This document shows, piece by piece, positions 3,307 through 41,519 of a DNA stretch of 64,000 bases (position 1 is its first letter; each line of letters opens with the position of its first letter). The stretch is from the IMG/VR virus record IMGVR_UViG_3300047445_000122; one strand, given 5' to 3'. The stretch comes from a virus (Duplodnaviria > Heunggongvirae > Uroviricota > Caudoviricetes). A program made the translations under genes and the position numbers. The notes under the pieces are model-generated. The model was not told the origin of the DNA. It worked only from the letters and a program-made list of their open reading frames with translations, and did no database searches.

Positions 3307-3608
3307 GCGTTTCCTTTGTTGTCGTACCAGAAGGCATCGCCCTTCTTCAGTGGGTTGGGCGTGAGGAACCTGTCTTGGTGCCACTTCTGTCCATCATAGG
3401 TCCAGAAGATAGCAATCAGGGTACGGATACCGGGGATGACGATGTTGTATTGACCAGGTTCAGCAGGAGGGTCTTCAGCGCAGTCGCGTGGGCCGTTGCT
3501 TGGTGGGGCGGGTTCTTTCTTGCCAAAGATGGCATCCCAACCCTTTTGGTACATGGGAGTTGATGTGCGGGTGGCGATGCGGTCGCCAGTGATGTCGTTG
3601 TGACTCAT
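3303..3608 (-). CDS. hypothetical protein (101 aa)
   Basis: Complete ORF translationally coupled to the dCMP deaminase gene. A -10-like TATAAT (minus strand, 3641..3646) lies upstream. Confidence 0.45.
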   Translation of the reverse strand: MSHNDITGDRIATRTSTPMYQKGWDAIFGKKEPAPPSNGPRDCAEDPPAEPGQYNIVIPGIRTLIAIFWTYDGQKWHQDRFLTPNPLKKGDAFWYDNKGNA

Positions 3609-3654
3609 GATTCCTTTCGAGAGGGGTTGCTATGGTCAGGATTATACCGTCAAC

Positions 3655-20647: not shown

Positions 20648-21724
20648 TTACTCCATAATGTTGAATTTGCGGAACGGCGACCAGGTCACGGCGCTCAGGA
20701 GGTCGCCTTGGAGGCGGCGCGTTACGCGGTGTTGGTAGATCACACCCTTCTTCGACAGGATATATCCATACACCAGAGCAGCGTATTCATACATCAGGTC
20801 GCCGTAACCGACAGCATAGCGATCAAAGATGTCTTCGATCTGGTTCCAGTGTTTGCCCCTCTCAGCTTCCAGGATTTCAGTGGTCTGGGTGATCATGGAA
20901 CCGTATTGAGCAATCAGCTCGCTGAAGAAGTGTTCCCACACCAGGTGACCGCCAACTGGACCAACCAGAGCAACATCATTCTCATGGAAGTTCTGTTTCT
21001 CCTCCAGGACAGCATCGAACTGGTCAATGAAGTCGCTGTAGACGTGGGCATTGGTGACGTGCCAGCGGTAGGAACCCAGCTTCACAGTCGGGTGGATCTT
21101 CTTCACCTCATTGTACATCAGCTCGTGGATGAAACTGAACTCGAATGGGTTGATCGAGCCAGTACCAAACAACAGGTCGCCAGAGCGTTGGATACACTTG
21201 GTGTGGAACTCACCATTCTCCACATAGAAGTGGAGCTCACGATTGCATGGGATGTCTTTTGGTACATGACCTTCACCATACACAGCTTCGATGGCTTCCA
21301 GGTTGTCGATGGTTGGGTCAGCAATCGTGACGAAGGAGCGGCGGGTGTTGATACCGTCATTGCGGAATTGATCAACAGCAGTCTGGAACTGGCTGTAACG
21401 ATGGAGGCGAGGGCCGTATGCGCCGTGCCAGGTAACTCCATCATCGCTGTAGTTCTTTGCGCGGGGCAGGAAGAAGTCCAGGTATGGGGTCACTGCGTTG
21501 GCTCCAGCCATGACCCAGAAGGTCTCAGCGATCAGCTGGAAGATGTTGGATTTGCGTCCGTGGAGGTGTAGGTGGCGGGAGCGGGGATTTTTGAACTCCA
21601 GCGTCGTGTCGTACATCGCCAGAGCGTACCCATTGCGGGTGTCTTGTTTGATACCTTCCTTTTGAAGGGCTTGGAAGGCTCGGTGGATTGTGTGTGAGAC
21701 GGTGTTGCCTCGGATAGTTCTCAT
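20648..21724 (-). CDS. ThyA-superfamily enzyme (thymidylate synthase or dUMP/dCMP hydroxymethylase) with about 90-aa C-terminal extension
   Basis: ThyA landmarks in order: RNGYA, ETFWVM, YGP, NTRRSFVT, catalytic PCN, QRSGDLLFG...N, AHVYS. The sequence continues a further 90 aa beyond the canonical fold. Confidence 0.75.
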   Translation of the reverse strand: MRTIRGNTVSHTIHRAFQALQKEGIKQDTRNGYALAMYDTTLEFKNPRSRHLHLHGRKSNIFQLIAETFWVMAGANAVTPYLDFFLPRAKNYSDDGVTWHGAYGPRLHRYSQFQTAVDQFRNDGINTRRSFVTIADPTIDNLEAIEAVYGEGHVPKDIPCNRELHFYVENGEFHTKCIQRSGDLLFGTGSINPFEFSFIHELMYNEVKKIHPTVKLGSYRWHVTNAHVYSDFIDQFDAVLEEKQNFHENDVALVGPVGGHLVWEHFFSELIAQYGSMITQTTEILEAERGKHWNQIEDIFDRYAVGYGDLMYEYAALVYGYILSKKGVIYQHRVTRRLQGDLLSAVTWSPFRKFNIME

Positions 21725-28564: not shown

Positions 28565-29611
28565 TTAAATCAGGCTGTGCGTTGTCGCTTTCGGCTGGGG
28601 AGCGCCTGCGCCGTTGTACTTCGAGCGTACTTGACCACCTTCCTTCAGCCGCAGATACTTGTCTGTTTCGCACAACAGGTTACTGCCGATGTTGTGGGCA
28701 TCTTCGAGGTGGAATTGTACAAGGGCTTCAACTTCAGCGCTGTAGCCATGCTGAATAGCAACTTGTGGCAATGCGACCTTCACCGCCTCCGACAGTTGAG
28801 CAAGCTCAAGGTAGTGTTGAGCTACCGGGATGGACTTGGTCAGTGGGCGACCATGAAGGCGATTCAAGAAGCGAACCGGGCCAGGGCCGATTGGCGCCCA
28901 GGTCTTCCAATCCGGGGCATCGCGCATGGTCATGTACTTCAAGTCTGCGATTTGCTGACCTGCCATGAAGTCACCGTTGGACTTGGCCTTGGTGAGGCGG
29001 CTGTGATAGCTCTGAAGGGTCTCCCCGGCTTCTGGCGGGCCAATTTCATAGATCGCCTTGAAGACGACATGAGCCAGGAAGTAGCGCTTGTCCTTGCACT
29101 TCTCGTACAACTCCAGGTCACCATCGACTTCAGCCGGGTTCCCGCAACCACGGATCATGTAGGCACCGGTGAACAGCTTGTCTTCCCTGCCGACAGCGCA
29201 GAAGCGGGTATACAGGTCATCAGCGTCATAGCCGTTCGTCAAGTCAGTCCAACCCAGCTTCAGGACGGTCGGAGACCAGTTGATCCAGCGCGCTACAGCG
29301 ACGTTGAACCACATGTCCTTGGAGTGATGATGTGGAGTGTAGAACTCCTTGAACAAAATCTCAGTCTCCTTGTCGTGCATGCGGTTGACGTTACAAAAAC
29401 GATGGTCGCGGATGAAGGTGTCTTCGGTCCACGGCTTGGGTTGACCTTCAGCTTTCTTGATGCGGACGGTCTCCCGCTCCAGTGCCCACTCACAGGCAGC
29501 GATCACATGGTTATGATAGTTGGCGGCGAACTCACCGTTGGCCTTGATCTGGTCTTCCAGGGTCTGGGACAGTTCAACAGCCTTGTCAAGTTTTTCAATC
29601 AGTGTGTTCAT
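28565..29611 (-). CDS. hypothetical protein (348 aa); candidate DNA-modification enzyme
   Basis: Conserved-looking globular protein with no motif I can name. Coupled by an ATGA overlap to the downstream P-loop kinase gene. Confidence 0.45.
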   Translation of the reverse strand: MNTLIEKLDKAVELSQTLEDQIKANGEFAANYHNHVIAACEWALERETVRIKKAEGQPKPWTEDTFIRDHRFCNVNRMHDKETEILFKEFYTPHHHSKDMWFNVAVARWINWSPTVLKLGWTDLTNGYDADDLYTRFCAVGREDKLFTGAYMIRGCGNPAEVDGDLELYEKCKDKRYFLAHVVFKAIYEIGPPEAGETLQSYHSRLTKAKSNGDFMAGQQIADLKYMTMRDAPDWKTWAPIGPGPVRFLNRLHGRPLTKSIPVAQHYLELAQLSEAVKVALPQVAIQHGYSAEVEALVQFHLEDAHNIGSNLLCETDKYLRLKEGGQVRSKYNGAGAPQPKATTHSLI

Positions 29612-30396
29612 ACAAAGAACCCTCCCAGGGCATTGGATGTTGGTTTCGGCTCCTCCTTCGGAGCAGGAGCATATTGGGCGATCATTTCTGGGGTCGGCGC
29701 CACTTGACCCATATCAGTCCAGCGCTTGAGCTCAGCGTTGCGCTTGTTGATGTCGAACTTGCGAATGAGGCGATAATCCACATCAGACAAACCGTCAGTA
29801 GCAAGCAAATTCAACATCTGTAAGACATCATTCCGGTCGCCATAGTGCGTCCAGATACCATAGTCAACCGCCTTGTTATGGGAGGTCATGACTGGGCGAT
29901 ACTTGGCACAGACCTTGTCAGTATCCAGAGGATCAATGTTGCCCTTCGAGACCCGGCGCTTCAGGATCGAGTTGAACACCACTTCAGGGTCAATATCAAT
30001 GGTGAACCAGAAGTATGGCACGTTGGCTGTCTTGAGGTCATCATAGATCACTTGAGAACCCTTGAAGGTTGTAGACGACAGCACACCCTCTGCCAGAGTG
30101 GTCTTGATCTTGGCCAGGTGCATGATAGCACGCTGTCCGGCCTCAAACGACTTCATGCCTTGGTCAGTCTTCTTGTCGTGGGTGCCCTTTACAGCGTCCA
30201 GACCACCACAGTCAGTCTCATACTTGCCAACGATGTGATGGGTACCACAGTCATAGTAGTGACAGCCGAACTCCGGGAGGTGTTTCAGCTCAGCATTGGG
30301 CGGCAGGAAGTTGCGGATGATGGTGCTCTTGCCAGTACCATTGGTGCCACGGATATTGATGTATCCAGGATCACCCCATTTCCAGTTTGGGTTCAT
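29608..30396 (-). CDS. P-loop kinase-family protein (polynucleotide / nucleotide kinase-like)
   Basis: Walker A GTNGTGKST within the first 30 residues. No HAD phosphatase DxDGT motif. Confidence 0.5.
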   Translation of the reverse strand: MNPNWKWGDPGYINIRGTNGTGKSTIIRNFLPPNAELKHLPEFGCHYYDCGTHHIVGKYETDCGGLDAVKGTHDKKTDQGMKSFEAGQRAIMHLAKIKTTLAEGVLSSTTFKGSQVIYDDLKTANVPYFWFTIDIDPEVVFNSILKRRVSKGNIDPLDTDKVCAKYRPVMTSHNKAVDYGIWTHYGDRNDVLQMLNLLATDGLSDVDYRLIRKFDINKRNAELKRWTDMGQVAPTPEMIAQYAPAPKEEPKPTSNALGGFFV

Positions 30397-30477
30397 GTTG
30401 CTCCTTTCATTGTTTGGGGGATTATACTACCAATCGAGAAAAATAAATAGCCCCCAGATTTCTCTGGAGGCCATTGT

Positions 30478-30663
30478 TCATTGAAGCAGAGAGGCGCGCA
30501 CGAAGCAGTCTTTGGCCTCCAGCAGCTTGCGCATACCAGCTTCCTTCTCAGGACTGGTTGGCAGCTCATCCATCTTCAGCATGAGCTCGAAGATCGGCTC
30601 ACTGACATCTTGAAGATGTGGAGGTAGGTGGGCGAAAGCGAAGAAGCGGCGATCAACTCTCAC
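30478..30663 (-). CDS. small hypothetical protein (61 aa)
   Basis: Complete ORF preceded by the terminator at 30445..30470. Confidence 0.3.
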   Translation of the reverse strand: MRVDRRFFAFAHLPPHLQDVSEPIFELMLKMDELPTSPEKEAGMRKLLEAKDCFVRASLLQ

Positions 30664-31010
30664 TTGCAGTCCTTGTTCTTCTGCTTGTCGCAGGTCGGTT
30701 GCGAGGCCACAGGAGTTACCGGGCGGGCCGGGAACATGAATGGCGTAGCAGCCGATTGACGAGCCGCCGTCACATGAGCAGGTTCAGTAACCACAGGAGC
30801 AGGACGCGGGGCCGGGGCCGGGGTTGCTGGACGGGCAGTCACCGTCGCAGGGCGAGCATACATCGTTGGATGGGATGCCACGCTCACGTGAGGCGAGACA
30901 TGAGCCACGCTAATGGCCCAGGCGCTGGAGGCGAACACGGAACCAACCAGAGCGGCGATCAGGGCCAGGTTACGCACTTGCCTTCTCCTTCTTCTGGGTC
31001 TTGATACCAC
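30660..31010 (-). CDS. secreted Pro/Ala-rich small protein
   Basis: An RRRRR stretch followed by a hydrophobic segment ending in AWA (signal-peptide-like), then PAPAPRPAP repeats and a C-terminal Cys pair. Confidence 0.35.
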   Translation of the reverse strand: MVSRPRRRRRQVRNLALIAALVGSVFASSAWAISVAHVSPHVSVASHPTMYARPATVTARPATPAPAPRPAPVVTEPAHVTAARQSAATPFMFPARPVTPVASQPTCDKQKNKDCK

Positions 31011-31179
31011 GAGCCTTCTTGCCGGCCTCAGTCAGACCGTCCTTGTCGTAGTACACACGGTCAGGCGATTTGCCGTGCTTGGCGGTAGTGGTTGCTGGAC
31101 CACGAGCGCCGTTCAGATGCATCTTGGTGATGGACTTTGCCAGTTCTTTGGTCTTGGCTGCTTTGGATTGGCGGGACAT
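30970..31179 (-). CDS. small basic protein (69 aa)
   Basis: Lys-rich; possible nucleic-acid binder. Weak. Confidence 0.3.
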   Translation of the reverse strand: MSRQSKAAKTKELAKSITKMHLNGARGPATTTAKHGKSPDRVYYDKDGLTEAGKKARGIKTQKKEKASA

Positions 31180-31210
31180 AGTGTTTCCTTTCAGTTGTTA
31201 CGTGTGTTGT

Positions 31211-31324
31211 TTATTTTGCTACCAGATAGCCGATGCCGATCCCTACAGCGAGGAGACCTACACCGACTACCAGAATGATCTTCACTACAAAGCCTGCAGC
31301 GGCGTCAGCGAGTTCAGTCAGCAT
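31211..31324 (-). CDS. tiny hydrophobic peptide (37 aa), not in the ORF track
   Basis: ATG..TAA. Sequence MLTELADAAAGFVVKIILVVGVGLLAVGIGIGYLVAK. Confidence 0.25.
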   Translation of the reverse strand: MLTELADAAAGFVVKIILVVGVGLLAVGIGIGYLVAK

Positions 31325-31326
31325 GG

Positions 31327-31449
31327 TTAGTGAGTCAGGAATTGTACCAGGGAGTATACACCCCAGATTGTTAGGCCCAGCATCGACAGGGCGCTGAAAA
31401 TGATGGCCGCGAAGGCCAACTTGAAGAAACCAGCAAAGCCATCAGCCAT
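31327..31449 (-). CDS. tiny hydrophobic peptide (40 aa), not in the ORF track
   Basis: ATG..TAA. Sequence MADGFAGFFKLAFAAIIFSALSMLGLTIWGVYSLVQFLTH. Confidence 0.25.
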   Translation of the reverse strand: MADGFAGFFKLAFAAIIFSALSMLGLTIWGVYSLVQFLTH

Positions 31450-31469
31450 GATTTTAACTCCGTCAGTGA

Positions 31470-32327
31470 TCATTGCGCCGACTTGAACATGGTAGGCATG
31501 GTACCCAGATACTGGATCTTGGTATCGCGCAGTGCTTCAGCCTGCATGCGAGCAATTTCCATCTGCATGACTTGCGGGTTGTTACGATAGGCTTGACCAC
31601 GCAGTTCGATGGCCTTGGCTTCAGCTTGAGCGACTTCCACTTGGGCTTGAGCGGTCACAACAACCTTCTCTTGCTCGGCCTTGGTGCGGCGCACTTCGTT
31701 CTCCACCTTCATGGCGTCCTGAGTCGCTTGAATCTTGGCATTGATCGAGGCCACAACGTTATCCGGGAAGTGCAGCTTGCCCAGGTAGCTGATGGATTCA
31801 ACCGTGATACCGATGGTGGCGGCGCGTTTGATTACAGCGTCATTGACTTCCTTCAGCAGCTTGGCCTTGCCGTCGCCTTGCAGGGACTCAACATCATACT
31901 TGGTGCCGGCTTCGTTGAACTCGTCACGAACGAACGTGCGCAGGAAACTGTCGCTGATGACGTCGATGGGCTGGCGGTACTTCTGGAACACCTTGATGGC
32001 GTTCGCCTTCTCCACATGGTAGGAGATTTGGATGTCCGTGGACACGCCGATACCACCGGCCACCTGGAACTGGATCGACTGATCCGGCTTCTTGCTCTCT
32101 TCACTGCGGGCTGTCCACATGTCGGCTTGGGTGAAGGTCGGCAGCAGTTCCACGCTGGTGTTCCAGCCAGCCATGTAGCGACCTGGATCCAGAACCTTGG
32201 AGTCAACGCCACGGTCATCACCGAACTTGTTGAACTGGACGCCAACAAAGCCGTTCGGGACGTTGTTACAGGCCGACAGGCCCAGAGCCAGGGCGGCGAT
32301 AGCTACGAAACGCATCAGACGGTTCAT
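31470..32327 (-). CDS. SPFH/band-7 (stomatin/HflC-like) domain lipoprotein
   Basis: SPFH core with a coiled-coil tail (EVRRTKAEQEK...). Start reassigned to ATG 32327, giving the lipobox MNRLMRFVAIAALALGLSAC. The stop of the upstream small membrane ORF overlaps this ATG. Confidence 0.65.
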   Translation of the reverse strand: MNRLMRFVAIAALALGLSACNNVPNGFVGVQFNKFGDDRGVDSKVLDPGRYMAGWNTSVELLPTFTQADMWTARSEESKKPDQSIQFQVAGGIGVSTDIQISYHVEKANAIKVFQKYRQPIDVISDSFLRTFVRDEFNEAGTKYDVESLQGDGKAKLLKEVNDAVIKRAATIGITVESISYLGKLHFPDNVVASINAKIQATQDAMKVENEVRRTKAEQEKVVVTAQAQVEVAQAEAKAIELRGQAYRNNPQVMQMEIARMQAEALRDTKIQYLGTMPTMFKSAQ

Positions 32328-32536
32328 TGACATACCACCTTGTTCTGGTTGTACAGATGGGTCAGGTACTTGATAGTGAAGTACGCCGCCAGGGCGGTTC
32401 CGACCAGAGCCAGGACCAGCAGAATGGAGGATGCGATTTTCAGGATCGCAGGCAGGACGAAGCCGGTGAAGACCAGCCACAGTACGATGACCAGCAGCAG
32501 TCGCACCACCAGGCCAAATTCTTTGGAATTAAACAT
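32324..32536 (-). CDS. small 2-TM membrane protein (NfeD-like partner of the SPFH protein?)
   Basis: Hydrophobic 70-aa ORF, translationally coupled (ATGA) to the SPFH gene. Confidence 0.4.
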   Translation of the reverse strand: MFNSKEFGLVVRLLLVIVLWLVFTGFVLPAILKIASSILLVLALVGTALAAYFTIKYLTHLYNQNKVVCQ

Positions 32537-32617
32537 GTTTCTCCTTGTTTGTTATCGGGGATTCGATAGGGAGAATTATATGGAACCCTCCCATGATCGT
32601 AAATCTTGATTGGTTGA

Positions 32618-34892: not shown

Positions 34893-34970
34893 TGGTGCCC
34901 GTTGCACGGATTTGAACCTGCGACCCCACCCTTACAGGGGGCGTGCTCTACCAGACTGAGCTAAACGGGC
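34893..34970 (-). tRNA. tRNA, probably Thr (anticodon TGT)
   Basis: Perfect acceptor stem GCCCGTT/AACGGGC plus encoded CCA, and a D-arm TAGCTCAGTCTGGTAGAGC. Anticodon loop reads CCTGTAA. T-stem is imperfect by eye. Confidence 0.5.
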
Positions 34971-34971
34971 T

Positions 34972-35046
34972 TGGCATACCGGGATGGGATCGAACCACCG
35001 ACACCAGGTTTTGGAGACCTGTGTTCTACCACTGAACTACCGATAC
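34972..35046 (-). tRNA. tRNA-Trp (CCA)
   Basis: Manual cloverleaf: anticodon loop CTCCAAA, T-loop TTCGATC, encoded CCA end. Confidence 0.7.
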
Positions 35047-35228
35047 ATTGTGTTGTTACTTATACTGCTTGGCCAGAGCCATCAGACCCTTCGCAGCTTC
35101 ATCGCCATAGGTCTTGAAGAATGCTTCAGTGGTCTTGTCATAGATGCTCTTGGCCAGAGCTGGATTCTTGTCGTCCAGAGCCTTAGCCAGCTGACTACCT
35201 TTGGCGGCGTGCGTATCCTTGTAGCGGA

Positions 35229-35516
35229 TCACTTGATCACAACCAGGATGTCTTCGTTGGACAGGATCAGATATTCCACGCCGTCAACCTTCACACCCTG
35301 ACCGGCGCCACGCTTGTGGACGATCTTGTCGCCCTTGTGGAAGGGTTCTGATTCACGCAGAGCGCCGGTGCTGACGTGGGAGACTTCAACCACAATGCCT
35401 TCAGAGACAGAAGCAGCAGGAGCCGGGGCGACGATGATACCGCCAGCTGAGGTTTCAGGGGCGGATTCACGCGTGATCACGCAGTAGCCTGGAGTTGGCT
35501 TGATTTGTTTGGACAT
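35229..35516 (-). CDS. GroES-like co-chaperonin (Hsp10; T4 gp31 analogue)
   Basis: IVHKRGAGQGVKVDGVEYLILSNEDILVVI matches the GroES C-terminus. Start set to ATG 35516 (MSKQIKPT) with AAGGAAA SD, because the longer track ORF would run into tRNA genes. Confidence 0.7.
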   Translation of the reverse strand: MSKQIKPTPGYCVITRESAPETSAGGIIVAPAPAASVSEGIVVEVSHVSTGALRESEPFHKGDKIVHKRGAGQGVKVDGVEYLILSNEDILVVIK

Positions 35517-35534
35517 GGTTTCCTTTTGATTGAA

Positions 35535-35608
35535 TGGAGGCGTGTGGGTGAATCGAACACCCGTCTTAGGCTTTGCAGGCCCAGACCTAACCACTCAGAC
35601 AACACGCC
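35535..35608 (-). tRNA. tRNA-Cys (GCA)
   Basis: Perfect acceptor stem, anticodon loop CTGCAAA, T-arm GGGTG TTCGATT CACCC. D-arm is unusual. Confidence 0.6.
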
Positions 35609-35614
35609 ATTGAT

Positions 35615-35697
35615 TGGTGGGGATACAGGGACTCGAACCCAGACGCCGAAGCCGGAGCGTTTGAAACTCCTGTGTCTACCAATTTCACCATATCCCC
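35615..35697 (-). tRNA. tRNA-Leu (CAA), class II
   Basis: Anticodon stem GGAGT/GCTCC with loop TTCAAAC, and a long variable arm. Confidence 0.6.
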
Positions 35698-35818
35698 AAA
35701 TTTCAACACCATCCTTACGCCCTCGCCCATCTATCGTGACAAGTTAGCAGAACTTCGGTGCACCTCACTTCAAGCAGTGCTGGCTACGCTGCACGGACTG
35801 CCGAATGATGTTGAAATT

Positions 35819-35894
35819 TGGAGCGGGTGACAGGTCTCGAACCTGCGCATGCCGGCTTGGAAGGCCAGTGCTTTACCAACTTAGCTACACCCGC
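35819..35894 (-). tRNA. tRNA-Gly (TCC)
   Basis: Perfect acceptor stem GCGGGTG/CACCCGC, anticodon loop CTTCCAA, encoded CCA. Confidence 0.8.
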
Positions 35895-35896
35895 AA

Positions 35897-35972
35897 TGGC
35901 GCCCAGGGCCGGAATCGAACCAGCGACACGTGGATTTTCAGTCCACTGCTCTACCAACTGAGCTACCTGGGC
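35897..35972 (-). tRNA. tRNA-Phe (GAA)
   Basis: Acceptor stem GCCCAGG/CCTGGGC, anticodon loop CTGAAAA, T-loop TTCGATT. Confidence 0.8.
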
Positions 35973-36107
35973 ATTGAAGCGTTTTGCATGGAAGTAGACT
36001 TCAATGCTATTCATGGACAATATACGCTGACTAGAACTGTAGAGACAGGGATGAGAACGTACAATGCTGCTTCACCACATATCAGGGAGCGACCCAGAAC
36101 ATTCAAT

Positions 36108-36193
36108 TTGGTGCGAACGGAGGGACTCGAACCCATCACGCCTAGTGGCACATCCCCCTCAAGGATGCGTGTCTGCCAATTTCACCACGTTCG
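36108..36193 (-). tRNA. tRNA-Leu (GAG), class II
   Basis: Anticodon stem CATCC/GGATG with loop TTGAGGG, and a long variable arm. Confidence 0.65.
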
Positions 36194-36269
36194 CATTGCC
36201 CCGGAGCCTGAAGAAACCATCCGGGCAGACCTGCTTCAGATCAAGTCTGGGGAGCAACCCCGCTAGAAC

Positions 36270-36524
36270 TCAATTCAACAAGCGACTCAACAACCGCTGG
36301 CTCTTGTTTCCATGTTTGGGTGAGTTGATGGTGACGTCCGGGAAGTCTGACTTGTTGAGCTGACGCCCAATCCGAGTCTCAAGACAACCCACGCACAACA
36401 TACCAACTATCGACCCAACAACCTTCATCCACAAATCAGTGTTGATGAAGTAGTGCTCGTTGGCCTTGCCGGTGTCTACACAGCAATCCAAACACAGCCA
36501 CTTTCGTCTTGATTTACACGCCAT
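36270..36524 (-). CDS. small Cys-rich protein (84 aa) embedded in the tRNA array
   Basis: The CLDCC...CVGC pattern suggests a zinc-ribbon-like fold. No tRNA overlaps it. Confidence 0.35.
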   Translation of the reverse strand: MACKSRRKWLCLDCCVDTGKANEHYFINTDLWMKVVGSIVGMLCVGCLETRIGRQLNKSDFPDVTINSPKHGNKSQRLLSRLLN

Positions 36525-36541
36525 GTGACTCCCATATCAAT

Positions 36542-36618
36542 TGGCGCGCCGAAGTGGACTTGAACCACTGACCCTGGGATTAGAAGGCCCATGCTCTATC
36601 CAGCTGAGCTACCGGCGC
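36542..36618 (-). tRNA. tRNA-Arg (TCT)
   Basis: Acceptor stem GCGCCGG/TCGGCGC, anticodon loop CTTCTAA (one mismatched closing pair), T-loop TTCAAGT. Confidence 0.55.
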
Positions 36619-36629
36619 GGCGCTGTTCG

Positions 36630-37151
36630 TTATGGAAGAATTATAAGTGAGGAGGTCAGAGGAGCAGAAACTTGTACTTGCTTCTCAACCACAACGTAGA
36701 AGCGGGAGAATGCCGCTGCCTTCTTGGACACTGGATACGGTCGCCTCATCAACTGACACTTAACCTTAGTCCAGAATCCCACCTTGATATCCACCAATTC
36801 AGTGATGTCAGCGGCGAAGCGGAACAGACCTCCAGTGGTATCAGCATCCAACATCTTACGCAGTTGTTCGCCGCCAGGAGTGTTGAAGACTGAGATCAGC
36901 ATGGTCTTGTCATGATCCATCTTGGTGACCAGGAAGTCGGCATATTCACTCGACTTGTCCAGACTGCCATAGATCACATCCACGAGGCCGTATTGAGCCT
37001 TGGTAGGGCGCTTACCCTCTCCCAGCCATTCCACGTTTTGAGCTTCCTGGGCTTTGTTCAGGGCATCGATGGCGTCAGTGTAGTCCAAGTCTGCCAGTGC
37101 GCCACGAGGCTCGAACTGGACTTGGTACTCACCAATGATTTCTTGTAGCAT
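36630..37151 (-). CDS. hypothetical protein (173 aa) within the tRNA array
   Basis: Complete ORF flanked by tRNA genes. Confidence 0.45.
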   Translation of the reverse strand: MLQEIIGEYQVQFEPRGALADLDYTDAIDALNKAQEAQNVEWLGEGKRPTKAQYGLVDVIYGSLDKSSEYADFLVTKMDHDKTMLISVFNTPGGEQLRKMLDADTTGGLFRFAADITELVDIKVGFWTKVKCQLMRRPYPVSKKAAAFSRFYVVVEKQVQVSAPLTSSLIILP

Positions 37152-37231
37152 ACACGCCCTCTTGATGTTCGGAGCAGCCTTCCACTGAAGGAGGTCAAGG
37201 AAAGGAGGAAAACTTGACGGCTGCGGTTGAT

Positions 37232-37309
37232 TGGTCTCCGCGACAGGATTTGAACCTGCGACCCCTCGCTCCCAAAGCGAGTGCTCTACACGGGCTGAGC
37301 TACACAGAG
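37232..37309 (-). tRNA. tRNA-Pro (TGG)
   Basis: C1-G72 acceptor stem (typical of tRNA-Pro), anticodon stem CTCGC/GCGAG with loop TTTGGGA. Confidence 0.7.
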
Positions 37310-37506
37310 AATGTTAGGTGTCAATGCTGGATTGTTGTGGAAGGATTTCAAGTGTTATGCCCTTGTTCTCCAACATTGACGGGGATGGTCGGCAGACTAC
37401 CCTTATGTAGTGTGACATTCCTCCAACCGGACATATTCTAACGCATGTTGGCGTCTAGTCTATCCGGCGGAATGCCGTTTTGGTTTTAAACTACTGCCGT
37501 TTGATC

Positions 37507-37582
37507 TTGGTGGTAGGGGCAGGGATCGAACCTGCGACCTGTGGATTATCGGTCCACTGCTCTGCCAACTGAGCTACCCCAC
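37507..37582 (-). tRNA. tRNA-Ile (GAT)
   Basis: Perfect anticodon stem GTGGA/TCCAC with loop CCGATAA. Note C at position 33. Confidence 0.6.
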
Positions 37583-37597
37583 CGGGTTGGTACTTAG

Positions 37598-37685
37598 ACC
37601 ATACATAACAACACTCGCGCCTTCTCTGAACATGTAGGCACTGTAGTGGGTTTCTGTTCCTCAGGAGGAGTGTTGTTATGTATGG
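37598..37685. repeat. 18-bp perfect inverted repeat (CCATACATAACAACACTC / GAGTGTTGTTATGTATGG) with a 52-nt loop
   Basis: Seen directly in the sequence. The right arm overlaps the 3' end of tRNA-Ser(TGA) by 3 nt. Confidence 0.6.
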
Positions 37686-37775
37686 CGGAAATGGTGAGAC
37701 TCGAACTCACACAGCGGTTGCCCGCCCTTCAGTTTTCAAGACTGCTGCCGCTAGGCCAACTCGGCTAACATTTCC
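37683..37775 (-). tRNA. tRNA-Ser (TGA), class II
   Basis: Acceptor stem GGAAATG/CATTTCC, anticodon loop CTTGAAA, long variable arm. Confidence 0.65.
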
Positions 37776-37776
37776 G

Positions 37777-37868
37777 TGGCGGAGACTGTTGGATTTGAAC
37801 CAACGGAGCCACTTGCGTGACTCGGTGCCTTAGCAGGGCACTGCAATAGACCGCTCTGCCAAGTCTCC
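37777..37868 (-). tRNA. tRNA-Ser (GCT), class II
   Basis: Acceptor stem GGAGACT/AGTCTCC, anticodon stem GTGCC/GGCAC with loop CTGCTAA, long variable arm. Confidence 0.7.
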
Positions 37869-38221
37869 AGTGTTTGGTGTGATCTCCTTGATACCGCCTC
37901 AGACCCTGTCTATGCATTCGGGCGTCACACTCTTCAGGTTTCAATCCCGGTTACAGCGTCCGGGGAACTAACGCCAGGCCCACTAGACGGAGGCTGGTGC
38001 TCTGTTGTACTGACTCTCTCAAATTGCACTTGAGGGCGTGTGCGCGGGAGTCTGCTTTTGCCCTGAATTCTGTCCACCCGAAAATCAAGTACATCCACTG
38101 TCCGCTGACTGGAAGCGGGGTTCGTATCAATCTTGATGTTGGGAAAGGGTGTCTCCATCTGATTCCAACGTTGCCTCCAACCCCTCTCGACCAGTCAGCC
38201 CGATACTCATTGGATATTCTG

Positions 38222-38296
38222 TGGCCGGAAGGACAGGAATCGAACCTGTGTACCAAGGCTATCCCGCCCCTGCTCTACCAACTGAGCTACCTCCCG
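38222..38296 (-). tRNA. tRNA-like gene with unresolved anticodon (possibly degenerate)
   Basis: Good acceptor, D and T arms (ACAGG TTCGATT CCTGT) and an encoded CCA. The anticodon arm does not fold canonically by eye. Confidence 0.4.
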
Positions 38297-38369
38297 GAAG
38301 CACAACCCATATTCCTGCAATCAGCATGCGTTCCCAATGGATTGTGGCCGTTCTATCACGACTGTCAAC

Positions 38370-38447
38370 TGGTTGCGACGGGCTGGATTTGAACCAGCGA
38401 CCTGAGGATTATGAGTCCTCTGCTCTACCTGACTGAGCTACCTCGCC
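38370..38447 (-). tRNA. tRNA-Met-like (CAT) with an imperfect acceptor stem
   Basis: Anticodon stem GAGGA/TCCTC with loop CTCATAA. The 3' end GCAACCA resembles an initiator tRNA. Two acceptor-stem mismatches including 1-72. Confidence 0.5.
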
Positions 38448-38454
38448 TTTGATC

Positions 38455-38530
38455 TGGCGCCGTGAGCTGGATTTGAACCAACGTGACACCCGCAACATGG
38501 GTGCATCCTAAGCCTCTAGATGATCACGGC
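38455..38530 (-). tRNA. tRNA with a GTT anticodon (Asn-like) and an atypical anticodon loop
   Basis: Perfect acceptor stem GCCGTGA/TCACGGC. Anticodon stem CACCC/GGGTG with loop ATGTTGC. Confidence 0.4.
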
Positions 38531-38618
38531 AAAACTACTGAAGTGAGAATCCTCTACATCGCGGCGGCAAGGACGCATCAGGCGTCCAATGTAGTTGACT
38601 CTCGCTTCAGGAGTCTGA

Positions 38619-38694
38619 TGGCGTCTCCAACGAGATTTGAACTCGTGTACCCACCTTGAAAGGGTGGTGTCCTAGACCGCTAGACGATGGAGAC
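38619..38694 (-). tRNA. tRNA-Glu (TTC)
   Basis: Near-identical architecture to E. coli tRNA-Glu: TCGTCTAGCGGTCTAGGACACC..CTTTCAA. Confidence 0.8.
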
Positions 38695-38696
38695 AG

Positions 38697-38778
38697 TGGA
38701 AGGGGCGACAGGATTTGAACCTGTGACGTATGCTGGGATCAAAACCCAGTGCCTTGAACCGAACTTGGCGACACCCCT
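38697..38778 (-). tRNA. tRNA-Gln (TTG)
   Basis: Anticodon stem CTGGG/CCCAG with loop TTTTGAT. A1-U72 acceptor stem. Long D-loop. Confidence 0.55.
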
Positions 38779-38786
38779 ATTGTTTT

Positions 38787-38863
38787 TGGCTCCCCAGGCT
38801 GGACTCGAACCAGCGACCAACACATTAACAGTGTGCTGCTCTACCAAACTGAGCTACTGAGGA
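38787..38863 (-). tRNA. tRNA-Asn (GTT)
   Basis: Anticodon loop CTGTTAA, D-arm TAGCTCAGTTTGGTAGAGC, T-loop TTCGAGT. Confidence 0.75.
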
Positions 38864-38920
38864 TTTGTTACTACAGCAGGGTATCAGTTCGCCGGAGCGG
38901 AATTGCTCGACGTGAAGAGA

Positions 38921-38953
38921 ATTATAGACCACTTCTGCTAAGAAGTAAAGCTC
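38921..38953 (-). promoter_or_regulatory. promoter of the tRNA array
   Basis: Minus strand reads GCTTTACTT..GTGGTCTATAAT, about 55 nt upstream of the first (highest-coordinate) tRNA. The 24-nt leader is identical to the one at 43684..43711. Confidence 0.55.
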
Positions 38954-38972
38954 AACTTACTTGACAACCGAA

Positions 38973-39890
38973 TTACATGTTGTTGTCGTACATCCACTGC
39001 ATCTGCGCCTTCACGTTTGCGAGGGAACCCACGATCACGTAGTTGACGAAGATGTAAACGCCGTCTGGGACGATGTTAGGGATGCGGAACACAGCATTCC
39101 ACTTCACAACCGGGTTGATGCCAGTCGCCTGATAGTTCCAGCGACCGAAACCCGCACCAGGGTAAGTCGATTGTGGCAGGGAACGGTTGTAGATACCCAT
39201 TGCATGAGTACCATTGCTGTTAGCGAAGATCAGCGGAAGACCTTGTTCAGGGCTGCAAGTCGCATAGGGCGGCGTGCAGTAGCTGATCGAGGCCAGTTGA
39301 CGACTGCCCTTCACATCCAGGGTGTAGAAGTTGTTGAACTCAACAGGCATGTAGCCGGTCAGGGTCTCGAACTTACCACGCACCCAGGATGGTTCGCCGG
39401 TGCTCTTGGGTGCTGCGTATTGAACTTCATAGCGCATGTAGGTCGCATAGGAACCTTCATACAGCTGGATGTTCTTGGTCAGCAACCAGTTGGACCGGGC
39501 CACACCGTTCACAGGGCGCCAGTACGACATCATGTTCACGCCCTTGACGGTCGGAGGAGTCGCCAGGGTGCTGTAGTTCACAGCGATACTCGTGGAGGCA
39601 GAAGGATTGACGCCGTTGTAGGGCACTTCCGCCCCGGCTTCGTTGGGGTTGTAGTTCTCTTCCAGGTCGCCAGACGCATTGCTGACAGTCATGGAGGATT
39701 GGAGTTGACGGCCATGGTCATAGTCGTCAATGAACTCCTTGCCGCTCCACTTCACGGAGCAAACTGCTTCAGCATCCCAGGAGCAGGTCTTAACAGTCAC
39801 ACCACGCGACGGCGAGGTGATAGTGTAGTCTGCCCAAGCCGGGGAGGAGATACCAACGATCATTGCCATTGCTGCGATAATACGCTTCAT
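38973..39890 (-). CDS. secreted protein of unknown function (306 aa)
   Basis: Start reassigned to ATG 39890 (AAGGAAA SD), giving the signal peptide MKRIIAAMAMIVGISSPAWA. Several Cys pairs. Confidence 0.5.
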   Translation of the reverse strand: MKRIIAAMAMIVGISSPAWADYTITSPSRGVTVKTCSWDAEAVCSVKWSGKEFIDDYDHGRQLQSSMTVSNASGDLEENYNPNEAGAEVPYNGVNPSASTSIAVNYSTLATPPTVKGVNMMSYWRPVNGVARSNWLLTKNIQLYEGSYATYMRYEVQYAAPKSTGEPSWVRGKFETLTGYMPVEFNNFYTLDVKGSRQLASISYCTPPYATCSPEQGLPLIFANSNGTHAMGIYNRSLPQSTYPGAGFGRWNYQATGINPVVKWNAVFRIPNIVPDGVYIFVNYVIVGSLANVKAQMQWMYDNNM

Positions 39891-39989
39891 GCCATTTCCT
39901 TTATGGTTGTTTTCTTTCGCGCCGCCCCGAATGAGGCGACGGAAAGAATTATAAACCACAATATCAACGGCGTAAAGATCAATATTTTA

Positions 39990-40511
39990 TCAACCCATCT
40001 TCTTCCCCGCTTGGATCAGGCGTTTCCGCTTGATCTTGAAGCTGTCGGATGAAGTCCCGCCGAACATCTCAGCATTCGCATACAGTTCGGCCCAGGCAGT
40101 GAGGTACAACATGTGAGAGAGTGGATGTTTCCACAACTCCACTACGTCATCCCCGCGCCGGGTGTGGAACTCCATGTCCATCCTCATGAGTTCAGCAACG
40201 GTATTGTCCTCAGGATAGAGGGCCAGCCATTGAGCAGCGCTCGCTTGGGCATGATCCGGGAACCTACCAGACCCGTCAGCAACAAGTGGCTTCCCGCAGT
40301 CGTGATAGATTTGATAGGTCTCCAGGATCAAGTCATCGTGGACATCGATCTTGCTTTTCAAGAAGGAGTAGTGAGGGCAGGTATCATCAGTCAGCTTCAG
40401 ATACGCCTCCCGCACCCTATAACCATGCTCTAAGACATTCAAGCTGGTTGTTTGGGACGTTTCCTGCATCAGCTGCTCTAAAGCGCCTATAGTGGCCGCT
40501 AGATGTCTCAT
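39990..40511 (-). CDS. HD-domain phosphohydrolase
   Basis: H...HD motif (HYSF...IYHDCGK). Start ATG 40511 overlaps the stop of the PTH2-like gene (ATGA). Confidence 0.5.
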   Translation of the reverse strand: MRHLAATIGALEQLMQETSQTTSLNVLEHGYRVREAYLKLTDDTCPHYSFLKSKIDVHDDLILETYQIYHDCGKPLVADGSGRFPDHAQASAAQWLALYPEDNTVAELMRMDMEFHTRRGDDVVELWKHPLSHMLYLTAWAELYANAEMFGGTSSDSFKIKRKRLIQAGKKMG

Positions 40512-40813
40512 TTCGTACCTCCCTTGAACAGGCGGTACTTCTTGAAGGCAGGGCGCTGATGTTGATACACAGGCTCCGACGCGAATGAGGTGAACCCATA
40601 GTCCCAATCGGGCTCATGGAACCTCACGAACTTTATCCCGCTGTCTTGAAGTTTGGCATACGCCTTCTCCAGTTCATCCTTGTTCTTGACTTGGATGACA
40701 ATCAGCGAGTTGGGTTCAGCTGTCGGATTCGGGAAGGCCAGGCCGCTCTCTTGGGCAGCGTGGCAAGACTGAACCAGTATTTGCTCAATAGGCAAGTCCA
40801 TGCGAATGAACAC
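40508..40813 (-). CDS. peptidyl-tRNA hydrolase, PTH2 family-like
   Basis: VQSCHAAQ (PTH2 motif is QCxHAA) and LIVIQVKNKDELEKAYAKL...GIKF parallel the PTRH2 family core. Probable GTG start. Confidence 0.5.
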   Translation of the reverse strand: MFIRMDLPIEQILVQSCHAAQESGLAFPNPTAEPNSLIVIQVKNKDELEKAYAKLQDSGIKFVRFHEPDWDYGFTSFASEPVYQHQRPAFKKYRLFKGGTK

Positions 40814-40874
40814 ATAGATCCATGCCTTGTCAGTGCACCTACTGGTTGATGATTGTTTCTTGGGATTTCATGGA

Positions 40875-41222
40875 TTACTCCTGAGGTTTGGTTGAGAAAA
40901 TACTGCGATATGTGTAGCTCTGATGGCGTCCACTTCCGTGGGTCTTGCGAATCATGAGGTTCCACTTGTTGAAAGCGAAGCACTCATCATTGACCGTCTT
41001 GCCCCACACAAACATACTGATCAGGAAGCCAACCAGATTCTGGGCAATCACCAGAGGCGAGAGGAACGCTGCGACAGTGAGGTGGACGATCATGACGCCG
41101 ATAGTTTGGGCGACATTGTGAGTCTTGGCCTCCATAGTGAACGGAGTCCAGGTTGCCATCGTCTCAGAGAACACTGTCAGAACGACGCCGACGCAATAAG
41201 CCAAGAAAATCAAGCTAGACAT
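40875..41222 (-). CDS. small 3-TM membrane protein (115 aa)
   Basis: Start reassigned to ATG 41222 (MSSLIFL) with GGAG SD. Three hydrophobic helices. Confidence 0.4.
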   Translation of the reverse strand: MSSLIFLAYCVGVVLTVFSETMATWTPFTMEAKTHNVAQTIGVMIVHLTVAAFLSPLVIAQNLVGFLISMFVWGKTVNDECFAFNKWNLMIRKTHGSGRHQSYTYRSIFSTKPQE

Positions 41223-41350
41223 AAAATCTCCATTTGTTGACCACATTGGAACACCCTCAACTCCCATCAACCGCGCACTTGCGGTCTATGAAGATCGACC
41301 TCTGTCAAGGCCATTTCTGAGTGACAGCTCATCTCAAGGACGTTCTAATG

Positions 41351-41428
41351 TGGTGCGTCGTACAGGAATCGAACCCGTGACCTGTCTGGTTAGGCGCCAG
41401 ACTGCTCTGCCAACTGAGCTAACAACGC
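41351..41428 (-). tRNA. tRNA-Arg (CCT)
   Basis: Acceptor stem GCGTTGT/ACGACGC, anticodon stem TCTGG/CCAGA with loop CGCCTAA, T-loop TTCGATT. Confidence 0.5.
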
Positions 41429-41432
41429 ATTA

Positions 41433-41519
41433 TGGTGGGCGTGGTTGGATTTGAACCAACGAAGTACAGAGACACCGGATTTACAGTCCAGCGCAGATTA
41501 CCGCATCTGCAACACACCC
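41433..41519 (-). tRNA. tRNA-Tyr (GTA), class II
   Basis: Anticodon loop CTGTAAA, long variable arm, acceptor stem GGGTGTG/CACGCCC. Confidence 0.65.

Follow-up and report, generated by a model that had tools for sequence, protein, structure and literature searches.

Two coupled envelope genes of tailed phages, encoding a membrane hairpin and an SPFH lipoprotein, and two gene-like small ORFs behind them

Why a tailed phage should carry a gene for an SPFH protein, coupled to a gene for a small protein with two transmembrane segments (2-TM protein), is the question raised by a locus in the 64,000-nucleotide DNA stretch analysed here (IMG/VR record IMGVR_UViG_3300047445_000122; hereafter, the window). 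New structures of the cages formed by SPFH proteins (prohibitin, HflK/C, stomatin, flotillin, erlin) appear at a rapid pace, and the purpose of these cages in bacteria is still debated. As late as 2026, the reason for a phage-borne SPFH protein was stated to be one that "remains unclear" (PMC13239085). In a preliminary description of the locus, the two genes were likened to NfeD-stomatin pairs, and two tiny ORFs were noted next to them. Results of our analysis confirm that all four ORFs are present on the minus strand as described, and indicate that the hairpin-shaped 2-TM protein and the SPFH lipoprotein constitute a conserved two-gene phage envelope module, which is a catalogued family and not a new kind of system. 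The features of the cassette and of the genes downstream of it are as follows:

32575..32603, minus strand: sigma-70-like promoter candidate (TTTACG-17-TATAAT, 10/12 matches), just upstream of the cassette
32324..32536, minus strand: 70-aa inner-membrane helical hairpin (2-TM protein), partner of the SPFH lipoprotein (ORF, AAGGAG ribosome-binding site, hydropathy)
31470..32327, minus strand: 285-aa SPFH/Band 7 lipoprotein of prohibitin/HflK/C type (Pfam, PHROG, PDB profile, AlphaFold2, Foldseek)
31327..31473, minus strand: small ORF A, 48-aa single-pass membrane peptide; its ATG overlaps the SPFH stop (ATGA)
31327..31449, minus strand: ORF A from its inner start, 40 aa; GGAG 8 nt upstream of the ATG
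31211..31324, minus strand: small ORF B, 37-aa single-pass membrane peptide; starts 2 nt past the ORF A stop
30970..31179, minus strand: 69-aa very basic protein of the same putative operon (AAAGGAAA ribosome-binding site, log-likelihood 0.51)
30660..30977, minus strand: 105-aa predicted secreted protein; signal peptide ending AWA, mature part rich in Pro/Ala/Thr
30478..30663, minus strand: 61-aa ORF, last gene ahead of the terminator (log-likelihood 0.19)
30446..30475, minus strand: intrinsic-terminator-like hairpin, a 13-bp stem followed by a T-run, closing the putative operon

The coding sequence of the SPFH protein, starting MNRLMRFVAIAALALGLSAC, likely occupies 31470..32327 (285 aa), because AAGGTGG, a ribosome-binding site, lies 7 nt before the ATG that overlaps the stop of the hairpin gene (ATGA). 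Public gene callers picked the same start, and an in-frame ATG at 32333 was rejected as sitting too near the ribosome-binding site. The earlier assignment of this protein to the SPFH group is well founded both in sequence profiles and in the predicted fold. The protein matches Pfam Band_7 (PF01145) with 65.7 bits (cutoff 23.6; E 7e-18) over residues 25-222 and PHROG 200 with E 3.1e-63 over residues 3-281, and its best match in a PDB profile search is prohibitin (E 2.5e-9). The AlphaFold2 model of the single chain (pLDDT 83.5) comprises strands in residues 20-105, helices in residues 107-172, and helices 189-249 and 251-270. Foldseek aligned it with prohibitin, HflK/C, stomatin and erlin at probability 1.0, the cage subunits of prohibitin and HflK/C being the best matches. 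The modelled structure has the full architecture of a cage former: SPFH1 and SPFH2, next a long coiled-coil helix, and a segment at the C-terminus.

The signal peptide, MNRLMRFVAIAALALG, is followed by the lipobox LSAC, with Cys20 encoded at 32268..32270, and has the features of an SPase II substrate. The lipobox had been noticed in the preliminary description and is real: its Cys is conserved in 96 of 96 related loci examined, and those loci that seemed to be devoid of it all turned out on rechecking to carry non-canonical lipoboxes. A search among the latter for fusions of hairpin and SPFH protein found none. In 60 of 62 homologues the Cys is placed 6 residues ahead of the first SPFH strand, and since the domain starts 6 residues past the lipidated Cys, it must lie flat against the membrane in which the lipid is anchored.

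The hydropathy of the 2-TM protein is high across residues ~5-58, with a brief dip at the loop PAILKIASS; two helices, this ~9-residue loop and a short tail use up all 70 aa. The gene has a codon-usage log-likelihood of 0.41. The predicted topology of the hairpin is N-in/C-in, and the corresponding partner in phage KpCHEMY26 has been annotated independently as "2 TMDs N in C in". A loop motif, G-x3-P-x-L-[IVF]-S-x2-[S/D], is conserved across the hairpin family; in the window protein Lys takes the place of the motif Ser, with a Ser 3 residues on. Searches of 1.8-5.8 billion proteins with the single sequence returned only the protein itself and one 45%-identical relative, and a PHROG search gave no match at E<=0.001, so that phrog_1130, which is matched by 17 of 30 hairpin-family partners, was not reached. 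When the window hairpin subfamily was aligned with the rest of the family by hhalign, the probability was 96% (E 4e-9) and the invariant Pro residues coincided. The family is detectable only by position and by profile. Among Pfam families, the 2-TM protein gave only a weak chance match to VKOR.

Of 62 distinct loci, 59 have a hairpin gene upstream of the SPFH gene, 36 of these with the exact 4-nt overlap, and hairpin subfamilies track SPFH clades. The phage version of the SPFH protein is essentially never alone: a dedicated two-helix partner accompanies it in a fixed, translationally coupled arrangement. The coupling of the two genes pointed out earlier is supported by the ATGA overlap in the window as well as by the persistence of the pairing in very distant phages. 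The SPFH lipoprotein family was found in 604 of 50,697 phage records (~1.2%), including N4, P1-like, Stx2a, Mu-like, T4-like and Lak phages; the pair occurs also in Burkholderia phages, and the module is present in 536 of 5,426 complete E. coli genomes (~10%). The hairpin and the 4-nt overlap are common to phages of Proteobacteria and to divergent loci that are likely those of Bacteroidetes phages. The hosts of the pair run from Proteobacteria to Prevotella, with the addition of these Bacteroidetes-looking loci. No GenBank phage exceeds 41% identity to the window SPFH protein; a scan of IMG/VR for close relatives with the single protein gave only 26-29% identity, and the relatives used here came from a profile scan. 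The statements on gene neighbourhoods concern ~14 inspected contexts.

The SPFH lipoprotein of the window belongs to PHROG 200 ("lipoprotein") and the hairpin probably to PHROG 1130 ("membrane protein"). With the pairs of these families the window pair shares gene order, overlap, lipobox and, apart from the motif Ser, the hairpin loop motif. These pairs are exemplified by bas69_0061/0062 of N4 strain AlfredRasser, gp29/gp28 of KpCHEMY26, gp48/gp49 of phi1026b and 00058/00057 of Gekk3-15. In comparison with them, the window pair represents a divergent clade with a different SPFH C-terminus, and the tail of small peptides is found in the window clade only.

The module heads a putative self-promoted operon of ~2.1 kb for small envelope and secreted proteins, as indicated by the promoter, the terminator and the tight gene packing. 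The promoter search, which relied on consensus match only, found 3 sites vs. 1.5 expected in shuffled sequences. The 69-aa basic protein matches no Pfam or PHROG family. The gene of the 105-aa secreted protein is the least certain of the operon because its codon log-likelihood, computed on a 116-aa version, is as low as 0.04. A scan of the region against Rfam revealed no RNA element, its sole match being sub-threshold and located on the terminator-like hairpin. The cassette segment is placed between a helicase gene and a 5-hmdU-kinase-like gene, an interval that holds one gene in phage PhiW-14, in which the cassette is absent. Megablast with the locus as query gave no match among 50,697 phage genomes, and distant blastn detected similarity only to the PhiW-14 helicase and gp72, which sets the phage type. 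GC content gives no sign of recent acquisition. There are no lysis genes in the cassette or its flanks, hence no adjacent endolysin of the kind that accompanies a class II holin or pinholin, and none of the four proteins matches any NCBIfam model (E<=0.01).

What defines the NfeD family is an OB-fold domain at the C-terminus (PF01957). QmcA, stomatins and FloT, the SPFH proteins that go with NfeD proteins, face the cytoplasm, and the SPFH domains of HflK/C and prohibitin face the periplasmic side. In the SPFH-NfeD operons (QmcA-YbbJ, whose structure 8z5g is listed among the Foldseek matches; FloT-YuaF; PH1511-PH1510), a gene of a small membrane protein likewise accompanies an SPFH gene, and it was this arrangement, as in ybbJ-qmcA, yuaF-floT and PH1510-PH1511, that spoke for a canonical NfeD-stomatin pair. 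However, a search of 30 hairpin-family partners for PF01957 gave 0 matches at E<=0.01. The phage partner has no soluble domain, as 70 aa cannot hold an OB-fold, and the phage SPFH lipoprotein faces the periplasm, while the SPFH partners of NfeD face the cytoplasm. Taken as a family assignment, the likeness to NfeD drawn in the preliminary description is refuted by the lack of OB-fold and PF01957 and by the opposite topology, and the reading of the locus as a canonical NfeD-stomatin pair is almost certainly wrong.

The predicted fold superposes on that of E. coli HflK/HflC in complex with FtsH (PDB 7vhp, 7wi3, 9cz2), in which a periplasmic SPFH domain and coiled coil are anchored directly to the membrane at the N-terminus. 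The phage anchor is a lipid and not a TM helix, there is one SPFH paralogue instead of a hetero-oligomer, and the membrane span is provided by a separate hairpin. The identity of the window SPFH protein to HflK/HflC is ~15-18%, and an association with FtsH is considered here by analogy. NCBIfam HflK/HflC models do not match the SPFH protein at E<=0.01; this, the lipobox in place of a TM helix and the single SPFH gene in the operon rule out an HflK/C orthologue. One homologue is labelled in GenBank as "putative FtsH membrane protease modulator", and our literature searches found no experiment on FtsH association for any phage member. The best match, both by sequence profile and by Foldseek, is the cage of mitochondrial prohibitins PHB1/PHB2 (PDB 8rrh, 9o9z), which occupies the intermembrane-space side, equivalent to the periplasm; it is eukaryotic, anchored by a TM helix and hetero-oligomeric, with ~15% identity to the window protein.

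Phages of the Staphylococcus phage K group (Kayvirus) also have a small membrane-protein gene (mbpV) overlapping an SPFH gene (mbpS). MbpV, with one helix and a charged tail, is not homologous to the hairpin, the SPFH proteins are ~23% identical, and the Kayvirus pair is located inside the lysis region. The authors who described it speculate that it aids Sec export of Tgl (PMC7150955). Two-component spanins, in which the gene of an inner-membrane protein overlaps that of a lipoprotein, resemble the pair superficially. In spanins, it is the i-spanin that has a long periplasmic coiled coil, and the lipoprotein, the o-spanin, is tiny and Pro-rich, so that the proportions are opposite to those of the phage pair; given these reversed sizes, the lack of a nearby endolysin and the separate location of N4 spanins, the spanin reading was rejected. 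Class II holins are, like the hairpin, 2-TM proteins of ~70 aa, but no endolysin is encoded nearby here, and in N4 both the validated spanins and the pinholin are separate from the SPFH pair.

According to the E. coli +2 rule, the residue after the lipidated Cys decides between inner- and outer-membrane sorting of a lipoprotein. In 62 homologues this residue is S in 41 (mostly C-S-K), D in 6, T in 5, G in 4, E in 3, N in 2 and A in 1. Further enterobacterial phage versions have D (Stx2a phage, RCS47, KpCHEMY26), E (KB57, TH18), Y (N4) or N (phiEa21-4). The window lipoprotein has the context C-N-N; sorting rules are host-specific. By the E. coli rule, the C-N-N context and the Ser of 41 of the 62 homologues would direct these lipoproteins to the outer membrane, which counts against an inner-membrane model. 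The inner-membrane side is favoured by Asp at +2 in versions from E. coli, Klebsiella and Burkholderia phages (CDR, CDN), by the hairpin loop, which is too short to extend past the inner-membrane surface, and by the Kayvirus homologues, for which, in Gram-positive hosts, the cytoplasmic membrane is the sole membrane available. The periplasmic orientation itself follows from the presence of the lipobox Cys in every homologue examined.

We tentatively favour, at somewhat less than even odds for the model as a whole, a cage similar to those of prohibitin and HflK/C on the periplasmic face of the inner membrane. The hairpin and the lipoprotein would be made in about equal amounts and would assemble there into a multimeric cage, with the hairpins forming the membrane-spanning fence, a part that in HflK/C and prohibitin is built into the SPFH polypeptides themselves. 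Such a cage could enclose a patch of the host membrane together with a conserved host client. The family spans host phyla as well as lytic and temperate lifestyles, which makes a universal target more plausible than a specific phage receptor. By analogy only, FtsH, the partner of HflK/C, would be the first candidate client, and the predicted effect is either damped membrane-protein quality control or membrane insulation during infection; the two tiny membrane peptides may also be cage clients. The single-helix MbpV of Kayvirus, not being a homologue of the hairpin, speaks against the cage model as judged from sequence. There is a small probability that the lipid-anchored SPFH wall and the hairpin fence build a virus-made inner-membrane microcompartment that captures FtsH or houses small phage peptides, and the same slight chance extends to the joint proposal that its clients are the products of ORFs A and B (48 and 37 aa) and those of the five-gene array of the relative L009. 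The cage model turns a vague annotation into a concrete and testable two-protein proposal for a module that occurs in genetically tractable model phages (N4, P1-like, Stx and Mu-like phages).

A different function, unlikely but of some weight, is superinfection exclusion or envelope shielding, where the pair, made early or by a prophage, would block adsorption or DNA entry of competitors, and the lipoprotein may be located in the outer membrane. Precedents for exclusion include T4 Imm and Sp, P22 SieA, T5 Llp and HK97 gp15, and known exclusion proteins are narrow and diverse. The +2 residues of most homologues fit the outer-membrane location, and a candidate family member encoded by a Pasteurella prophage, an HflK/C-like protein of 25-35 kDa, is made in the lysogen and has been detected in outer-membrane vesicles (PMC9872710). 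The pair also behaves as an accessory one, present or absent among close relatives (e.g., absent in PhiW-14 and variable in Bruynogheviruses; PMC8540360), it has its own sigma-70-like promoter candidate, in the Stx2a phage it is encoded between cI and xis-int, on the same strand as cI, and in N4 it adjoins a gene annotated as superinfection exclusion. What weakens this reading is that the architecture is common to phages as different as crAss-like, Lak, N4, T4-like and Staphylococcus phages, suggesting a universal target, that none of the four proteins matches any defence component in PADLOC, and that no experiment ties any family member to exclusion. If either the FtsH or the exclusion reading is true, the module bears on lysogeny decisions, on prophage-conferred immunity and, considering the Pasteurella lead, possibly on virulence.

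We give little credence to a general membrane stabiliser, that is, a cage resembling those of flotillin or PspA-associated SPFH proteins that keeps the membrane tight and energised until lysis and has no specific client. It would fit the about equal match of the fold to all cage-forming SPFH families, the broad host range and the sharing of the operon with small membrane peptides and a secreted protein. The phage SPFH protein, however, sits on the periplasmic side, where no SPFH protein is known to protect the proton-motive force (PMF), and the strictly conserved motif of the hairpin loop suggests a specific protein contact. A role in lysis timing, in which the 2-TM protein would be a class II holin, pinholin or antiholin and the SPFH cage would sequester holin to delay lysis, is very improbable. 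Class II holins are of the same size and topology as the hairpin, the Kayvirus SPFH gene comes after holA-lysK (PMC7150955), and a Hydrolase_2 gene is found two genes upstream of the pair in locus L016. Against these stand the lack of lysis genes nearby in the window and in ~12 other annotated contexts, and the separate, experimentally defined lysis cassette of N4 (gp60-63). None of more than 60 rapid-lysis mutants of N4 maps to the SPFH pair (bioRxiv 10.1101/2025.11.12.688109), and specialist annotators of lysis genes labelled the pair merely as "lipoprotein" and "membrane protein".

For the window itself, the locus appears to be an ordinary accessory cassette with two plausible new micro-genes, ORFs A and B. 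As open frames alone they prove nothing, since chance ORFs of such length are common (5 kb contain 73 ORFs of 25 aa or more). Nevertheless, judging from sequence features, they look like real genes, and it is quite unlikely that they are untranslated chance frames in a spacer. Their codon-usage log-likelihoods per codon, 0.34 for ORF A and 0.35 for ORF B (range 0.33-0.35), are those of true genes: chunks of the latter average 0.34 and wrong frames -0.49, with 0.12% of wrong-frame chunks exceeding 0.3, i.e., a false-positive rate of ~0.1%. The start-stop coupling is tight, each ORF encodes one clean hydrophobic helix, and public pipelines predict the 48-aa gene in 5 of 5 contigs; ORF B is covered by 3 contigs, in 2 of which the 37-aa gene is predicted. 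The preliminary description was right about the ATG and stop codons, but the start it gave for the first ORF, at 31449, is probably an inner start of the 48-aa frame; either start is possible, that at 31473 being the more likely one.

Both ORFs have weak homologues in syntenic position in the two closest relatives. Small membrane ORFs are located at the syntenic site in L009, L010 and L011, and comparisons among family members give z-scores, corrected for composition, of 3.5-6.5. Among 810 window ORFs, ORF A is the top match for L010_A (E 0.024), L009_5 (E 0.011) and L011_C (E 0.2), and ORF B is the top match for L010_B with E of only 0.17; the support for ORF B is weaker than that for ORF A. 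This weak homology (E 0.01-0.2) and the disappearance of both ORFs in relatives with SPFH identity <=70% are what the chance-frame explanation can claim beyond the frequency of such ORFs. Conservation in related phages, suggested in the preliminary description as a check on the small ORFs, was not found beyond the two or three closest lineages. The tiny peptides would accordingly be a fast-evolving, lineage-specific add-on outside the core module, as far as sequence comparison can tell. Five public contigs with an identical SPFH protein are 100% identical over the cassette and hence offer no variation for dN/dS, and a search of the rest of the window gave no further paralogue of the small peptides. 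One of the relatives, L009, carries a five-gene array of small membrane peptides.

The minus strand of the window carries, between positions 32603 and 30446, a tightly packed string of genes with the following features:

32603..32575, minus strand: sigma-70-like promoter candidate TTTACG-17-TATAAT, matching the consensus at 10 of 12 positions
32324..32536, minus strand: very hydrophobic 70-aa protein (hairpin protein) with an AAGGAG ribosome-binding site
31470..32327, minus strand: 285-aa SPFH lipoprotein, with AAGGTGG 7 nt upstream of its ATG
31327..31473, minus strand: 48-aa ORF A, whose ATG overlaps the SPFH stop codon
31211..31324, minus strand: 37-aa small hydrophobic ORF B
30970..31179, minus strand: very basic, very lysine-rich 69-aa protein without a family match
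30660..30977, minus strand: 105-aa protein without a family match, starting with a cleavable signal peptide of the Sec type (…SSAWA); the body is rich in Pro, Ala, and Thr and its last residues are CDKQKNKDCK; codon-usage support is weak
30478..30663, minus strand: 61-aa open frame
30475..30446, minus strand: terminator-like hairpin at the end of the string

The gene junctions overlap or abut (two ATGA overlaps, a 2-nt spacer, and overlaps of 8 nt and 4 nt). The most likely start of the SPFH gene is 32327, because of the position of AAGGTGG, the overlap of the ATG with the preceding stop codon, and the agreement of public gene callers. The ORF coordinates of the preliminary description are correct except for one tiny ORF, placed at 31327..31449; this frame is open, but it represents an inner start of ORF A. 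The inner ATG is preceded by its own GGAG, and both starts are possible.

The assignment of the 285-aa protein to the SPFH superfamily, proposed previously from sequence inspection, is backed by matches to Pfam Band_7/SPFH (65.7 bits; cutoff 23.6) and to the phage family PHROG 200 'lipoprotein' (3e-63), as well as by comparisons with solved structures. A profile of 29 homologues retrieved prohibitins 1 and 2 first (2.5e-9), followed by QmcA, HflC, and HflK. In the AlphaFold2 model (pLDDT 83.5), the SPFH domains lead into a 60-residue helix and then another helix, and the top-ranked Foldseek matches of this model are cage subunits of prohibitin, HflK/C, stomatin, and erlin, all with a probability of 1.0. 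The protein is not an HflK/C orthologue. The N-terminal sequence MNRLMRFVAIAALALG-LSAC has the textbook form of a lipoprotein signal, and the lipobox noticed earlier is genuine, its cysteine being kept in every homologue examined. As a lipoprotein, the SPFH protein faces the periplasm. HflK/C are likewise located on the periplasmic side of the membrane, and prohibitin on the equivalent side. Since the first SPFH strand begins only 6 residues past the lipidated cysteine in 60 of 62 homologues, the SPFH domain must lie directly on the lipid-bearing membrane. Taken with the structural model, these results show an extracytoplasmic SPFH protein with a predicted complete cage-forming architecture, held tight against a membrane.

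The 70-aa protein consists of two hydrophobic helices, a link of about 9 residues (PAILKIASS), and a basic C-terminal tail. It has no match in Pfam, NCBIfam, or PADLOC, and single-sequence searches of billions of proteins returned one relative only. The analysis covered 96 loci with lipoprotein homologues, drawn from IMG/VR as well as from phage genomes and metagenome contigs and representing 62 distinct SPFH sequences. In 59 of the 62 distinct loci, a gene for a small hydrophobic hairpin runs up to the SPFH start, with the exact 4-nt ATGA overlap in 36 of those 59. The hairpins have in common the loop motif G-x3-P-x-L-[IVF]-S-x2-[S/D], with an invariant proline; 17 of 30 partners match PHROG 1130 'membrane protein', and hhalign aligns the window subfamily with the remaining hairpins at 96% probability (E 4e-9). 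The hairpin gene often escapes annotation, as in the GenBank records of a Stx2a-converting phage (L098, 3316..3504) and the P1-like phage RCS47 (L101, 1284..1520), and on the metagenome contig of the close relative L009 (1923..2120). The annotators of KpCHEMY26 described the hairpin as '2 TMDs N in C in'. These results show that an inner-membrane hairpin partner is inherited together with the SPFH lipoprotein and translationally coupled to it, and that the predicted periplasmic loop of this partner is conserved.

The preliminary description likened this pair to NfeD and stomatin. A scan of 30 partners gave no match to PF01957 (NfeD), and 70 aa is too small for an OB-fold domain, so that 'NfeD-like' describes no more than a similar operon logic. 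The topology is opposite, as NfeD pairs with SPFH proteins on the cytoplasmic side. The original observation is confirmed and its interpretation is partly supported, for the SPFH lipoprotein and the small ORFs but not for the NfeD family.

Unlike the lipoprotein, HflK/C and prohibitin carry transmembrane helices in cis. We suggest that the hairpins stand in for these helices, and that hairpin and lipoprotein may form a stoichiometric complex. This complex would be a cage seated on the inner membrane, at its periplasmic face, and would fence off a membrane patch together with a client. The short hairpin loop can reach only things on the inner-membrane surface. The aspartate at position +2 of the lipidated cysteine in E. 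coli, Klebsiella, and Burkholderia phage versions, as well as the existence of Gram-positive homologues, are consistent with an inner-membrane location. In E. coli, however, serine or asparagine at +2 directs sorting to the outer membrane, and serine dominates at this position in the family, with asparagine in the window protein. The finding of a Pasteurella prophage HflK/C-like protein, a possible family member, in outer-membrane vesicles would also speak against the inner-membrane cage; its loss altered envelope phenotypes (PMC9872710). The weakest reading is a role in lysis: of about 14 contexts inspected, just two have lysis genes next to the module, the validated lysis cassette of N4 lies elsewhere, and none of more than 60 N4 rapid-lysis mutants maps to the SPFH pair (bioRxiv 10.1101/2025.11.12.688109). 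As to the client of the inner-membrane cage, a universal one, with FtsH as the obvious candidate, would be favoured over a phage-specific receptor, since phages of different host phyla and lifestyles share the architecture.

Open frames as short as ORFs A and B are frequent by chance. Nevertheless, their codon-usage scores (0.33-0.35 per codon) lie at the mean of true genes in 44-codon chunks (0.34; wrong frames, mean -0.49, with 0.12% of chunks above 0.3); the scores of overlapping ORFs on the plus strand range from -0.42 to +0.17. Both products are predicted to contain a single clean hydrophobic helix. Single-helix small ORFs occupy the same site in the two closest lineages (two or three in L010/L011, five in L009) and form a loose family (composition-corrected z-scores 3.5-6.5). 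In a leave-one-out test against 810 window ORFs, ORF A ranked first for three of these small proteins (E 0.011-0.2), and ORF B for one (E 0.17). Public pipelines call the 48-aa gene in 5/5 contigs and the 37-aa gene in 2/3 contigs covering it. The earlier proposal that these are genes is thus favoured, very probably correctly for ORF A and with good likelihood for ORF B. Conservation is confined to loose syntenic counterparts in the two closest lineages; neither ORF was found in relatives with SPFH identity of 70% or less, nor were paralogues found elsewhere in the 64-kb window. The two ORFs are lineage-specific additions outside the core module. In L009 (SPFH 79% identical), the five consecutive ORFs of 31-56 aa following the SPFH gene (2970..3650), several ending G-V-I or G-I-L, are a tandem array of related micro-proteins.

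Among 50,697 phage records, 604 encode a homologue of the lipoprotein, including N4 (strain AlfredRasser), other Schitoviridae, P1-like RCS47, and Stx2a-converting and other temperate enterobacterial phages. Further carriers are Burkholderia phages phi1026b and phiE125, Mu-like Pseudomonas prophages, Vequintavirinae, Ounavirinae, and T4-like, crAss-like, and Lak phages; Kayvirus MbpS is a homologue at about 23% identity (PMC1524935; PMC7150955). In E. coli, 536 of 5,426 complete genomes encode the E. coli version, both chromosomally and on plasmids, under no other name than 'SPFH domain-containing protein | hypothetical protein'. Some GenBank phage homologues are labelled 'putative serine protease', 'transposase fusion protein', 'putative transposase', or 'putative ion transporter', which are probably inherited errors. 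In four Pseudomonas Mu-like prophages (L023, L031, L035, L052), the gene for a small protein resembling CsrA/RsmA (MLILTRRVGE…) directly follows the module, about 40-60 nt 3' of the SPFH gene.

The SPFH lipoprotein is an already catalogued phage family, with the name 'SPFH domain-containing lipoprotein, putative FtsH membrane protease modulator' given to homologues in GenBank, and the window pair is a divergent new member of this known kind. Papers of 2016-2026 touch on the lipoprotein briefly and describe its role as unclear; our literature search, of incomplete coverage, found none describing the near-invariant SPFH-hairpin coupling. The micro-genes trailing the SPFH gene are a small clade-specific novelty. 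The general interest of the cassette lies in its exemplifying a very widespread module of two proteins, for which a clear structural model is now open to testing.

In the window phage, a distant relative of Delftia phage PhiW-14, the module is an ordinary accessory envelope cassette. In PhiW-14, one gene separates gp72 from the helicase gene gp70, so the cassette sits in extra DNA in the window phage; its GC content is that of the flanks, and the closest relatives (SPFH 79% and 73% identical) retain the order helicase, hairpin, SPFH. The 348-aa gp72 homologue next to the cassette (28565..29611, minus strand) has the HMUDK_hel domain of 5-hydroxymethyl-dU DNA kinases, and a thymidylate-synthase-like gene lies nearby (20648..21724, minus strand); judging from these genes, the phage probably hypermodifies thymidine like PhiW-14. 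Between the cassette and this kinase-like gene, a 262-aa protein (29608..30396, minus strand) matches PHROG 800 'terminase small subunit' (5e-23), a label that is doubtful because of its P-loop-like N-terminus and DNA-metabolism neighbourhood. Just upstream of the helicase gene, 20 tRNA genes are clustered at 34893..41519 (minus strand).
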